This document shows positions 9,243 to 53,145 of a stretch of 64,000 nt of DNA, in pieces. The stretch lies in contig JANJGN010000052.1 of assembly GCA_026770705.1 (NCBI GenBank), forward strand, positions 2,790,001-2,854,000. Direction: 5' to 3'. The notes under the pieces were generated by a model, which saw nothing but the letters and a program-made list of their open reading frames with translations, was not told the origin of the DNA and searched no databases. The translations under genes and the position numbers were made by a program. Position 1 is the first letter of the stretch, and every line of letters begins with the position of its first letter. The DNA comes from Isurus oxyrinchus. Its lineage: Eukaryota.

Positions 9243-9288
9243 ATGGGAGAGGTCGGTCTGATATTGATCTTCATCAGCTTGCTGCCAA
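9243..9288 (+). pseudogene. Siglec-like gene A1, leader exon (MGEVGLILIFISLLP, phase 1)
   Basis: ATG, hydrophobic stretch, GT donor at 9289; phase fits the V exon at 10109. Confidence 0.7.
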
Positions 9289-9544
9289 GTACAAATTCAT
9301 TACTGATCGGAACTCAGGGAATTGGATTCTTTCCTGGAATGAGGAAGTGAACATTTAATTTTAGAGAACAGGGTTAGTGATCACACAGAGAGTGAGCGAA
9401 TAGCGAGTCAGAGAATATAGCAAAAGCAAAAGCCTCATACGGACTCGAAACACCAACTCTGTTTCTCTCTCCACAGATGCTGTCAGACCTGCTGAGTTTT
9501 TCCAGCATTTTCTGTTTGTGCATCAGAGAGCTTGTTTCAATAGG

Positions 9545-10070
9545 AATGACAGTGCATTTATATAGCACCTTTAATGCAGTCAAACATCCTTATTGCTTCA
9601 CAGGATTCCCCCACAAGGGGTAACATCCCCTCAGCATCCACCCTGTCAAACCCCCCACCACCTCAGAATCTTATATGTTTCAATAAGATCACCTCTCATT
9701 CTTCTAAACTCCAATGGATACAGGGCCCAACCTGCTCAACATTTCCTCATAAGACAAACCCCCTTCATCCCAGGAATCAGCCCAGTGATCCTCCTCTGAG
9801 CTGCCTCCAATGCAGAGTCTATCCCTCCCTAAGTAAGGAGACCAGAACTGTACACACTGCTCCTGATACAATCTCACCAACGCCCTGTACAGTTGTAGCA
9901 AGACTTCCCTCCTTTTATACTCCATCCCTTTGCAATAAAGGCCAACATTCCACTTGCCTTCCTCATTCCGTGCTGTTCCTGAATGCTGACTTTCTGTGAT
10001 TCATGTACAAGGACACCCAGATCCCTCTGTACCGCATTCTGCTGCCTCTCTGCATTGAAGTAATATTCTG
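9545..10070 (-). mobile_element. CR1-type LINE 3' fragment
   Basis: ORF 9704-9925 (EYKRREVLLQLYRALVR...CVQFWSPYL) is the typical CR1 ORF2 C-terminus. Confidence 0.85.
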
Positions 10071-10108
10071 CTTTTTGATGTCCTGTCTCTTCCCTTGTTG
10101 CCTTTCAG

Positions 10109-10398
10109 GAGTGACGTCAGAGGGATGGTCTATGAAGGCGCTACCTCGGAGGGCCATCAGCAGCTCTTGTGTGGTTATTCCGTGTAGCTTTGAGTTTCCT
10201 TCCCACTCTTACACAGCACTGCACGGAGCTTGGTATAAATATTGGTATAGATGGAAATATACCATCACATACACCAAAGATTCCAATTATGGGGTGGCCA
10301 CATTCGTGGGACGTGCTAAAATAATCGGCGACTTGGAAGTGAAGAATTGTTTGGTGAGGATTGACAGTCTCAGAGCTGAAGACAGTGACGTGTATTAC
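10109..10398 (+). pseudogene. Siglec/MAG-like V-set exon A1, 3'-truncated by Gypsy sequence
   Basis: tttcAG acceptor; SSCVVIPCSFEFP..HGAWY..GRAKIIGDL..NCLVRI..EDSDVYY, then an abrupt switch to gag-like sequence. Confidence 0.85.
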
Positions 10399-11750
10399 AC
10401 CCAATTCTAAATCTTTTCACCAATTAGTCGTCCTCATGAAGATGTATTTTCAGCTGAAGCCGTGGGTAATAATGCAGAGGTTTAAGTTTAACTCCAGAGT
10501 AAGGGCCCAGGGAGAGTCCATCGCAACCTATACAGTGAAGTGGAAGCAGGTGACTGAGCACTGGGACCTCGGAGACACACTCAATGACATGTTGCGGGGC
10601 CGATTGGTTTGTGCCGTTCACCCCAACGCCATTCAGAGCCGTTTACTCGCAGAAGCCGACATCGATTTGAAGCGCACCATGGAAATAGCGCCAGGCATGG
10701 AAAGTGCTGGGAGAGACTGGCGGGATTTACAGGATGTACAACATGGCGCCAGTCCTCAGCTGGGACAGGAACCAACCACCGGGCGTGAGGCTCAAACTGG
10801 AGAGAGAGAGAGAGAGAGAGACAGCCGCCAAGCGAGAGACAGTCTCTGCCGCTCCAGAAACTAAAAGGCTTCGTGGGAGTATTTCAGCAGCAACTCCGAA
10901 GTTGGCCTGTTCTCGATGTGGGGGGCATTGAGCTCGTACCGGACACCTGCAGGTTCAAGGGGGCAGAAAGCCATCACTGCCACAAGAAAGGGGCGGGTAA
11001 TAAAGCAATGCAGGGTGAAATCGAGACAGCCCATCAGGCAGTGCACCAACATGATGGAAGTGAATAATATCACAGAGCCTGAAGCTGCTGATACCGATGT
11101 CTATTCCCTGTCCAATGTCACAGTGGTAAAAACTGAACCTATAACCATCACAACCCAAGTGAATGGGCAGCCACTAGTAATGGGGCAGATACGGGAGCCT
11201 CAGACACAGTGGTGGAAGAGCCCACATTTAAACAGCTAAATGAAGGAACCCAGACGCTGAATTTAGAGCAAACAATGGATCAGCTGAAGACACACACTGG
11301 AGAATCCATACAGGGAAAGGACCTCATCCCAGTACCTGTGTCCTACAGGCAGCAGACAGCCCAGCTTCCAGTGATCATAGCGACAGGTGAGGGCCCTAGT
11401 CTTCTGGGCCGAGACTGGTTCCAGAAAACCAAGCTCAGCTGCTCTGAAATGTTTCACTGGAGGAGTTGCTGAGTTGCTGGGGGAATATGAGAGTGTATCT
11501 CGGAATGAGTTTGAAGAATTGAAGCATCCTCACAGGCTGCAAGTGTCCCTCAGGTCAGAGTTGGTTCCACTGGAAAATCCTGAAGAGAAAGAAAGCGAAT
11601 TCTGTGCCGCTCTGAGCAAACTGAAGAAACAGTTGGCAGGGAAGACCCAACCATGTCCAATGTTCCAGGAGGAAGGCAAGAGATACAAGGAAGAGACTGA
11701 AGAGCTGAAGATTCAGCTGAATGAAACCAAAGAGGCAGTTACAGTATCAC
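10399..11750 (+). mobile_element. Degenerate Gypsy LTR retrotransposon internal fragment (gag-protease)
   Basis: QRFKFNSR..GESIATY..LNDMLRGRLVC, a degenerate CxxC zinc knuckle and GEGPSLLGRDW; frameshifted. Confidence 0.85.
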
Positions 11751-11759
11751 AACAATTTT

Positions 11760-50304: not shown

Positions 50305-50625
50305 AAGGGGCTGAATGGCCTCCTCCTGTTCCTGTGTAATGGGCTTCAGTGGCTGAATGGCCTCCTCCTGTTCCTGTATAACGGACATAAGTGGCAGAAT
50401 GGCCTCCTCTTGTTCCTGTGTAACGGACATAAGTGGCAGAATGGCCTCCTCCTGTTTCTGTGTAACAGTCTTGAGGGGGCTGAATGGGCCTCCTCCTGTT
50501 CCTGTGTAACAGTCTCGAGGGGACTGAATGGCCTCCTCCTGTTTCTGTGTAACAGGCTTGAGGGGGCTGAATGGCCTCCTCCTGTTCCTGTGTAACAGGC
50601 TCAAGGGGCTGAATGGCCTCCTTCT
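50305..50625 (-). repeat. ~43-bp minisatellite
   Basis: Mirror of 11760-12176, shorter. Confidence 0.9.
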
Positions 50626-50639
50626 GCACTGTAAACTTG

Positions 50640-51989
50640 TTGTGATACTGTAACTGCCTCTTTGGTTTCATTCAGCTGAATCTTCAGCTCTTCAGTCTCT
50701 TCCTTGTATCTCTTGCCTTCCTCCTGGAACATTGGACATGGTTGGGTCTTCCCTGCCAACTGTTTCTTCAGTTTGCTCAGAGCGGCACAGAATTCGCTTT
50801 CTTTCTCTTCAGGATTTTCCAGTGGAACCAACTCTGACCTGAGGGACACTTGCAGCCTGTGAGGATGCTTCAATTCTTCAAACTCATTCCGAGATACACT
50901 CTCATATTCCCCCAGCAACTCAGCAACTCCTCCAGTGAAACATTTCAGAGCAGCTGAGCTTGGTTTTCTGGAACCAGTCTCGGCCCAGAAGACTAGGGCC
51001 CTCACCTGTCGCTATGATCACTGGAAGCTGGGCTGTCTGCTGCCTGTAGGACACAGGTACTGGGATGAGGTCCTTTCCCTGTATGGATTCTCCAGTGTGT
51101 GTCTTCAGCTGATCCATTGTTGGCTCTAAATTCAGCGTCTGGGTTCCTTCATTTAGCTGTTTAAATGTGGGCTCTTCCACCACTGTGTCTGAGGCTCCCG
51201 TATCTGCCCCATTACTAGTGGCTGCCCATTCACTTGGGTTGTGATGGTTATAGGTTCAGTTTTTACCACTGTGACATTGGACAGGGAATAGACATCGGTA
51301 TCAGCAGCTTCAGGCTCTGTGATATTATTCACTTCCATCATGTTGGTGCACTGCCTGATGGGCTGTCTCGATTTCACCCTGCATTGCTTTATTACCCGCC
51401 CCTTTCTTGTGGCAGTGATGGCATTCTGCCCCCTTGAACCTGCAGGTGTCCGGTACGAGATCACTCCCCCCCACATCGAGAACAGGCCAACTTCGGAGTT
51501 GCTGCTGAAATACTCCCACGAAGCCTTTTAGTTTCTGGAGCGGCAGAGACTGTCTCTCGCTTGGCGGCTGTCTCTCTCTCTCTCTCTCCAGTTTGAGCCT
51601 CACGCCCGGTGGTTGGTTCCTGTCCCAGCTGAGGACTGGCGCCATGTTGTACATCCTGTAAATCCCGCCAGTCTCTCCCAGCACTTTCCATGCCTGGCGC
51701 TATTTCCATGGCGCGCTTCAAATCGATGTCGGCTTCTGCGAGTAAACGGCTCTGAATGGCGTTGGGGTGAACGACACAAACCAATCGGCCCCGCAACATG
51801 TCATTGAGTGTGTCTCCGAGGTCCCAGTGCTCAGTCACCTGCTTCCACTTCACTGTATAGGTTGCGATGGACTCTCCCGGGGCCCTTACTCTGGAGTTAA
51901 ACTTAAACCTTTTCATTATTACCCACGGCTTCAGCTGAAAACACATCTTCATGAGGTCGACTAATTGGTGAAAAGATTTAGAATTGGGT
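50640..51989 (-). mobile_element. Gypsy gag-protease relic (mirror of 10399-11750)
   Basis: ORFs 51461-52003 and 50920-51183. Confidence 0.85.
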
Positions 51990-52279
51990 GCAATACACGT
52001 CACTGTCTTCAGCTCTGAGACTGTCAGTCCTCACCGAACAATTCTTCCCTTCCAAGTCGCCGATTATTTTAGCACGTCCCACGAATGTGGCCATCCCATA
52101 ATTGGGATCTTTGGTGTATGTGATGGTATATTTCCATCTATACCAATATATATACCAAGCTCCGTGCAGTGCTGTGTAAGAGTGGGAAGGAAAGTCAAAG
52201 CTACACGGAATAACCACACAAGAGCTGCTGATGGCCCTCCGAGGCAGCGCCTTCATAGACCATCCCTCTGACGTCACTC
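51990..52279 (-). pseudogene. Siglec/MAG-like V-set exon A2, truncated by Gypsy
   Basis: SSCVVIPCSFDFP..NCSVRT..EDSDVYC; same junction as A1. Confidence 0.85.
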
Positions 52280-53099
52280 CTGAAAGGCAACAAGGGAGGG
52301 GACTGAACATCAAAAAGCAGAATATTACTTCAATGGAGAGAGTCTACAGAATGCGGTACAGAGGGATCTGGGTGTCCATGTACATGAATCACAGAAAGTC
52401 AGCATTCAGGAACAGCACGGAATGAGGAAGGCAAGTGGAATGTTGGCCTTTATTGCAAAGGGATGGAGTATAAAAGGAGGGAAGTCTTGCTACAACTGTA
52501 CAGGGCGTTGGTGAGATTGTATCAGGAGCAGTGTGTACAGTTCTGGTCTCCTTACTTAGGGAGGGATAGACTCTGCATTGGAGGCAGCTCAGAGGAGGTT
52601 CACTGGGCTGATTCCTGGGATGAAGGGGGTTTGTCTTATGAGGAAATGTTGAGCAGGTTGGGCCCTGTATCCATTGGAGTTTAGAAGAATGAGAGGTGAT
52701 CTTATTGAAACATATAAGATTCTGAGGTGGTGGGGGGTTTGACAGGGTGGATGCTGAGGGGATGTTACCCCTTGTGGGGGAATCCTGTGAAGCAATAAGG
52801 ATGTTTTACTGCATTAAAGGTGCTATATAAATGCACTGTCATTCCTATTGAAACAAGCTCTCTGATGCACAAACAGAAAATGCTAGAAAAACTCAGCAGG
52901 TCTGACAGCATCTGTGGAGAGAGAAACAGAGTTGGTGTTTCGAGTCCGTATGAGGCTTTTGCTTTTGCTATATTCTCTGACTCGCTATTCACTCACTCTC
53001 TGTGTGATCACTAACCCTGTTCTCTAAAATTAAATGTTCACTTCCTCACTCCAGGAAAGAATCCAATTCCCTGAGTTCCGATCAGTAATGAATTTGTAC

Positions 53100-53145
53100 C
53101 TTGCAGCAAGCTGATGAAGATCAATATCAGACCGACCTCTCCCAT
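53100..53145 (-). pseudogene. Siglec-like gene A2 leader exon (MGEVGLILIFISLLQ, phase 1)
   Basis: CAAG|GTAC donor. Confidence 0.72.

Follow-up and report, generated by a model that had tools for sequence, protein, structure and literature searches.

Most vertebrates have hepcidin in a single copy, as a dose-sensitive hormone, and the antimicrobial forms present in several copies are regarded as an innovation of teleosts. Seabream is said to carry about 15 copies, and the title of a work cited in PMC11043163 speaks of a 'massive expansion' of hepcidins in that fish. Other described expansions are those of croaker, with six copies that were called the highest number then known (PMC6240063), of seahorse, with four rapidly evolving hampII genes and hampII stated to be confined to teleosts (PMC9073008), and of anemonefishes, with about seven copies (PMC7067429). 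In sea bass, hamp1, which has an SHLS-like start, is the ferroportin regulator and hamp2 is antimicrobial (PMC8502971). Amongst sharks, hepcidin has been found in the plasma of the nurse shark, so that a shark hepcidin is made as a protein; neither the number of genes nor their locus or sequence type is stated there (PMC9207270). Two further articles (PMC6795676, PMC3832898) added nothing on sharks. No published shark hepcidin expansion was found in the literature searched, with subscription journals and genome-paper supplements, either of which could hold a gene-family count, lying outside the search.

Here we describe the hepcidin genes of a lamniform shark, Isurus oxyrinchus, beginning from a window of 64,000 nucleotides (contig JANJGN010000052.1, hereafter C52, positions 2790001-2854000; window positions are counted from its first base). 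In the reading that we consider probable, the window represents a single unit within a young, 89-copy hepcidin array that lies among elasmobranch Siglec-like genes and likely yields varied, HAMP2-like host-defence peptides, and two HAMP1-like genes at an older locus, on contig C34, likely keep the iron role. As in the teleost HAMP2 expansions, extra, fast-evolving copies occur beside a conserved HAMP1-type gene (PMC6240063, PMC9073008, PMC8502971), and the three exons, the loss of a QSHLS-type start and a similar cysteine core are common to both. The shark array differs in its scale, with 89 copies over 13.8 Mb against the 3-6 in these articles, in its mixed orientation, in being interleaved with a Siglec family and in the longer loop of its peptides, and it is likely of independent origin. 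The noteworthy point of the locus is this very large, young and diversifying array, and not the MAG-CD22 linkage highlighted by a first-pass annotation of the window.

Structure and copy number of the hepcidin genes

The hepcidin gene called in the first-pass annotation is an intact three-exon gene on the minus strand of the window, with all exons in phase 0 and GT/AG intron ends. Exon 1 (49156..49233) comprises 26 codons, with a hydrophobic signal peptide recognised by eye and a GT donor; exon 2 (47470..47526) comprises 19 codons of the prodomain; and exon 3 (44959..45075) encodes the end of the prodomain, an RQKR convertase site and the mature peptide (45048-44962). The latter has 29 residues with 8 cysteines, an 8-residue loop and a NET sequon, and exon 3 scores 32.2 bits against PF06446 (cut-off 27). 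A putative proximal promoter (49320..49467, minus strand) combines a TATA-like box (49325-49320) with a GGCGCC hexamer (49467-49462), identical to the hexamer of human BMP-responsive elements (PMC3879105).

The gene is real, having three exons that are spliced in public RNA-like data. The joint between exons 2 and 3 was recovered at the predicted intron ends in runs X7 (9 contigs) and X8 (5 contigs), the join of exons 1 and 2 was visible as a loose end in X7, and no joint of exons 2 and 3 was found in two DNA-like runs. Depth in the RNA-like runs was 1.4e5-6.8e5 over the exons, versus approximately 1e1-1e3 in unique intron. Minor joints at cryptic sites within intron 2 (45074 to 46129 and 46283 to 47469, within window 44800-47600) were also present in X7, and suggest a rare additional exon.

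A search of the genome with exon 3 of the window gene returned 91 matches from 91 candidates, and 10 kb was fetched around the 90 other copies. This number is far above the expectation of the first-pass annotation that further copies might lie nearby. Eighty-nine of the matches are of the window type and lie on 14 unplaced contigs with a summed length of 13.8 Mb, including 30 on C52 and 20 on C71; the remaining two are of another type and lie on C34. A query made of exon 1 and the promoter gave 134 candidates, and each of the 40 scored was at least 99% identical. Copies within the array are spaced at ~110 kb in mixed orientation, with a mean difference of 1.5% (75 copies with all segments).

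Intact genes, with three exons and their splice sites, account for 43 of the 89 array copies, and both C34 genes are also intact. Amongst the others, the exon-1 donor has changed from GT to TT in 36, five of which are also without exon 2, whilst five have no exon 1 within the 9.6 kb fetched, three carry a frameshift in exon 3 and two have a bad acceptor. Among the products of the 43 intact copies there are 21 different mature-peptide sequences. Each has 8 cysteines in the hepcidin pattern (C, CC, CC, C, CC) and the NET sequon, and the convertase site that precedes it reads RQKR (34 copies), RQNR (7) or HQNR (2).

At least 150 Siglec V exons are intermixed with the array hepcidins: a query with a Siglec V exon gave 1077 candidates, and the 150 that were scored all lay on the array contigs plus C1130, 145 of them without a stop. 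A truncated V exon of the type termed V2 below was present upstream of hepcidin in 39 of the 89 loci (within the 9.6 kb fetched) and a neighbouring repeat in 65, which argues that these were amplified with hepcidin as one block. No FFAR gene was found in the window's array. At two loci, L048 and L063, hepcidin exons 1-2 are lost and the remainder directly adjoins a Siglec gene, present as its 3' half and running in the opposite direction, a layout that is identical on C71 and C52.

Peptide diversity and explanations for the array

Within the mature peptide, nucleotide diversity among the array copies was 0.042, compared with ~0.002 for exons 1 and 2; in non-coding DNA it was 0.011-0.016 in most segments and 0.001 in one segment of 60 bases. 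An amino acid is changed by 22 of the 24 mature-peptide alleles (non-synonymous diversity, piN, 0.048 versus synonymous diversity, piS, 0.010), with the cysteines spared in all 43 intact copies, and non-singleton amino-acid alleles numbered 17 per 73 sites, versus 104 per 1421 non-coding sites. The four-gamete test was failed by 1059 of 1431 pairs of common sites, pointing to recombination or conversion among the copies.

The array and C34 types differ at ~30% of bases in the mature peptide versus 6-11% in its flanks, and the introns, untranslated region and exons 1-2 of the two types are 89-94% alike on both sides of it. Both types have a 29-residue mature peptide with a long loop. Both C34 peptides begin with an SHLS motif resembling that of sea bass hamp1, whereas a QSHLS-like motif is absent from all 89 array copies, in which variability is greatest at the N-terminus of the peptide, two of whose residues have been deleted in seven copies. 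The core of the array peptide resembles sea bass hamp2 (PDB 1S6W alignment, E 0.24); an Asn-X-Ser sequon is likewise present in 1S6W, and the shark is thus not alone in having one. The likeness of the flanks to the C34 type (89-94%) would favour convergence with hamp2 over shared descent. A homologue search with exon 3 outside this genome, word-based and weak, found nothing, and a query of the ESM Atlas gave only one, unrelated match (0.76).

We propose that segmental duplication, both direct and inverted, multiplied a unit made of one hepcidin gene, a repeat and a dead Siglec V piece, along with live Siglec genes. Gene conversion would then shuffle variants between live and dead copies, and selection would drive change in the mature peptide. 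As the N-terminal iron motif has been lost from this peptide, a high dosage would not be expected to block ferroportin, and a defence role is what we infer for the array peptides. Should this hold, the division between iron regulation and defence would have arisen twice, the second time at a scale many times above the copy counts cited, and the 21 peptides, differing at a few surface positions, would together with the conserved sister type form a natural panel for separating ferroportin-binding from defence residues. We give an even chance to a broader proposition, that this shark has derived from its iron-hormone gene the largest vertebrate hepcidin repertoire observed so far, with ~90 copies and at least 21 intact variants, an independent move toward the HAMP2 form, shuffling by gene conversion, amplification together with hundreds of Siglec-like receptors as a single immune complex of 14 Mb, and a hepcidin-Siglec-FFAR order at its locus dating from the first jawed vertebrates.

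Several observations weigh against a diversifying defence array. Forty-six of the 89 copies are broken or incomplete and a single donor-killing change has spread to 36 of them, so the array can expand without every copy being functional, and mature-peptide diversity is 0.046 in dead copies versus 0.042 in intact ones. The array peptides are weakly cationic, with a net charge of 0 to +4 versus +5 (by hand count) for the C34 type, which is not as predicted for a membrane-active peptide and argues against simple membrane-lytic action. Synonymous divergence between the two types in the mature peptide is also ~0.30 (4 of 13.5 sites), and the Fisher p of 3e-5 for the excess of amino-acid alleles is indicative only, since recombination leaves the sites non-independent. 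The RNA-like runs X7 and X8 represent one sample, classed as RNA by guess, with no RNA record and no tissue given, and the array contigs are unplaced relative to C34. The copy number itself is supported by DNA run X1, which had a depth of 643-988 on unique hepcidin parts versus 15.1 on a single-copy control (ratio 43-65), though the tool warns against reading contig depth as a copy number, and the assembly may itself have been made from X1, so that the depth checks the assembly and not a second animal; run X4 leaves the control uncovered and therefore gives no copy estimate.

The foremost alternative is that of the first-pass annotation, in which hepcidin is carried along in Siglec duplications. 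The array would then grow through its Siglec genes, or through repeat-driven instability, with the hepcidins drifting and decaying as passengers. In its favour, the Siglec V candidates far outnumber the hepcidin copies, 46 of these copies are broken or incomplete, and dead ones are no less diverse than live ones. However, drift would not produce 22 amino-acid-changing alleles out of 24 with every cysteine spared in the intact copies, nor does it fit the near-invariance of exons 1 and 2. The notion of carriage by Siglec genes is doubtful because the Siglec fragment accompanying hepcidin is itself dead, whilst the hepcidins, 43 of 89 of which are intact, show an excess of amino-acid change, and we regard a passenger origin as unlikely.

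A much smaller probability attaches to the array peptides being iron hormones that were amplified for dosage and that bind ferroportin via a different N-terminus. This would suit the low net charge, and also the promoters: the GGCGCC hexamer is kept, at a distance of ~140 bases from the TATA-like box, in 74 of 85 array promoters, and the segment containing it is displaced from that box by a further 2.6-3.3 kb in the two C34 genes (L128 and L129, compared with window 49320-49600). The extra promoter DNA of L128 has a common repeat inside and an 8-base direct repeat at its bounds, and the difference in spacing would mean that DNA was inserted in the C34 type or, alternatively, lost from the array type. 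Dosage selection, though, predicts conservation and not diversification, and the N-terminus is the most variable part of the peptide, without an SHLS motif and with the two-residue deletion in seven copies.

Marginally less probable again is an old HAMP1/HAMP2-like pairing of the array and C34 types, predating the split of sharks and bony fish, in which gene conversion homogenised the signal peptide, prodomain and introns whilst selection kept the mature peptides apart. The resemblance of the array core to teleost hamp2, the high synonymous divergence between their mature peptides and the frequency of conversion in the array would all be accommodated. Against it, that divergence is estimated from only 13.5 synonymous sites, the types share the 29-residue length and long loop, the surrounding introns, untranslated region and exons 1-2 are 89-94% alike, and HAMP2 has been placed in teleosts only (PMC9073008).

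A copy number produced by assembly artefact (unmerged haplotypes or read errors) is largely refuted and scarcely credible for, although near-identical contig pairs do occur in the assembly (as with LSR on C452 and C1620) and 10 of the 75 full copies have a nearest neighbour within 0.2%, 54 of the 75 are more than 0.5% from theirs, a single contig of 4.17 Mb holds 30 copies, and X1 depth is 43-65 times that of the control.

Hepcidin, Siglec and FFAR genes on C34

The human 19q13.12 order, which we take to be LSR-USF2-HAMP-MAG-CD22-FFAR1/3/2 in full, provides the closest comparison for the neighbourhood of the HAMP1-like genes; TOMM40 presumably also maps to human 19q13. In mammals, the FFAR2 locus is shared with FFAR1, FFAR3, HAMP and USF2, with MAG nearby (PMC4453067). 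C34 is a chromosome-scale contig of 19.9 Mb, and its relevant stretch lies between runs of N at 15,110,243 and 15,376,811. Here, Siglec genes of the same family as in the window, with full exon sets (15.129-15.189 Mb), are followed by the two HAMP1-like hepcidins (15.20 and 15.23 Mb), a broken FFAR (15.265 Mb), the 3' part of a Siglec gene (15.27 Mb) and an intact FFAR (15.293 Mb); a third FFAR lies at 15.509 Mb, and the first exon of TOMM40 at 14.60 Mb, 0.6 Mb from the hepcidins. The three FFAR genes were the only matches at E below 1e-40 among the 118 of 607 candidates scored. When 432 unmasked open segments from the surroundings of the C34 hepcidins were scanned against Pfam, the only families recovered were G-protein-coupled receptors and transposon domains.

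Hepcidin on C34 thus resembles human HAMP in lying between Siglec-type and FFAR genes, within ~165 kb, which places the three together in a cartilaginous fish. It differs from the human locus in that the shark Siglecs were not MAG or CD22 orthologues by any test made, USF2 was not found, and the LSR and FXYD genes are on other contigs; the window's array, in turn, is without FFAR genes. The hepcidin-Siglec-FFAR linkage common to sharks and mammals is likely old, judging from this one shark genome. The proposal that such linkage predates the split of cartilaginous and bony fish, made from the window, is supported by the arrangement on C34, where FFAR genes do accompany hepcidins and Siglecs, but not by the window itself, which is a young duplicate given that its copies differ by 1.5% on average, and cannot alone date the linkage.

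Other genes named in the first-pass annotation as neighbours to look for did not appear beside hepcidin. USF2 was not found by a family search (150 of 353 candidates scored), by patterns or by motif scans; the family search for helix-loop-helix (HLH) proteins listed no match on C34 or C52, and degenerate patterns for USF and MAG motifs gave nothing, which an intron or a single change would explain. Five partial HLH matches were rejected as MITF/TFE- or HES/HEY-like by eye. LSR lies apart from hepcidin on the unplaced contigs C452 and C1620, and FXYD matches lie on C24, C271, C764 and C4051, with none on C34 or the array. The part of C452 that was read (~280 of 487 kb) contained LSR, immunoglobulin (Ig)-type frames and a ZP exon, and no Siglec or hepcidin. 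Downstream of LSR on this contig are two GC-rich single-exon Ig-type frames (L149:7615-9120 and L234:5447-6457), FAM187-like by eye, and the ZP-domain exon is at L235:6573-6854. From C34 15.40-15.60 Mb and C452 together, 41 of 283 candidate segments were scanned against Pfam, most of the DNA being tandem repeat. Gene islands amid large tandem-repeat blocks were observed over C34 14.7-16.2 Mb and in C452, and these blocks may explain the fragmented assembly of the 19q13-like region.

Siglec-like genes of the window

On one side of the intact hepcidin, Siglec-type V exons are present at 10.1 kb, 22.3-22.7 kb and 34.5 kb, and on the other at 52.0-52.3 kb, in agreement with the first-pass annotation, which had placed both V and C2 exons on either side. 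The C2-type exons, on the other hand, are confined to one side (21.1-21.4 kb, and a half exon at 35.4 kb), none being found in the window above 45 kb. Three of the four V exons are broken, two of them cut in the F strand by repeat insertion and one by a frameshift, and the fourth is open. No complete Siglec exon set occurs in the window, whilst full sets occur on C34.

The stretch 8901..18198 (plus strand) is an inverted duplicate of 53495-46726 with 92-97% identity, apart from an unshared stretch near 12.5-15.6 kb, and positions 9243 and 53145 belong to one leader exon in its two arms. The left arm includes a second, broken hepcidin (16100..17455, plus strand) that was not among the features listed in the first-pass annotation, with exon 1 (16100-16177) carrying the GT to TT change at its donor, exon 2 (17399-17455) intact and exon 3 absent. 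Long (GA/GT)-rich arrays of 72-base tandem repeats lie just outside both arms (window 1-8971 and 53414-54578), and are possible recombination sites.

Upstream of the intact hepcidin, on the minus strand, lies a dead Siglec-like gene of the V2 clade, with a leader exon (53100..53145) that matches the leader of the related protein P0100 and a V2 exon (51993..52279) that an inserted repeat has truncated within the F strand and that is 97% identical to a Carcharodon CD22-like model. Between this piece and the hepcidin promoter is a retroelement-like insertion (50630..51990, minus strand) common to 65 fetched loci, a label made by eye, Pfam having given no family for the pieces tested. The second leader and truncated V2 exon occupy 9243..10398 (plus strand; V at about 10108-10398). 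A partial gene of the V1 type (21121..23675, minus strand) consists of a leader (23675-23636), the open V exon (22712-22344), which carries the F-strand Arg, and a C2-set exon (21417-21121), with no membrane or tail exon found downstream within the window. A broken V1 gene (33712..37300, approximate ends, plus strand) retains a leader, a frameshifted V exon (~34453-34820), half a C2 exon (35352-35500) and a membrane-region exon (~37163-37300), and an orphan last exon (28640..28756, plus strand) encodes a Siglec-like cytoplasmic tail with two tyrosine motifs, 87% identical to the P0107 tail.

The V1 domain at 22 kb is clearly Siglec-type. Its 17 best PDB rows are all Siglecs (E 5e-17 to 1e-13), with CD22 ranking below other Siglecs; its B- and E-strand cysteines and F-strand arginine align with those of Siglec-8 and Siglec-5, and it scores 42.9 bits against Ig_CD22. 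The closest named proteins, from Carcharodon and Cetorhinus, are 96-97% identical to one V type and 79-80% to the other. In the V2 exons of the window the site of the F-strand Arg lies beyond the end of the exon, and intact relatives (P0100, P0101, P0107, P0109 and P0112) have Tyr; the V2 clade, well conserved across sharks and skates, is possibly a non-lectin Siglec-like receptor.

Phylogenetic analysis placed the window V domains in two clades comprised only of elasmobranch sequences (support 100/98 and 100/100), with deeper forks unsupported. The tree, of 65 rows and 123 columns, was hand-picked from 249 proteins with one MAG row and no non-Siglec outgroup, and the representative-protein profile, at 841 columns and not limited to the V domain, favoured multi-Ig proteins and recovered one MAG cluster. 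Within the tree there was no supported grouping with the single MAG row, nor with Tiliqua CD22 or Polyodon CD22-like. The V domain of Polyodon MAG found 37% identity at best in the shark genome (150 of 963 candidates scored), and the missing MAG orthologue may reflect an assembly gap or the limit of the search. The first-pass annotation was hence right in its Siglec assignment of these domains, but its identification of the neighbours as MAG and CD22 was not supported, and caution is advised with shark annotations as 'MAG-like' or 'CD22-like', which mostly denote a separate elasmobranch family.

Mammalian CD33-related Siglec clusters evolve by birth and death, and share with the shark cluster its many V exons, many pseudogenes, inversions and conversion. 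They differ in that the window V domains form elasmobranch clades of their own and that the shark cluster co-amplifies a hormone or peptide gene. A single Siglec-type V exon was also found away from both the array and C34, at C8:88360955-88361302, and is possibly that of a sialoadhesin.

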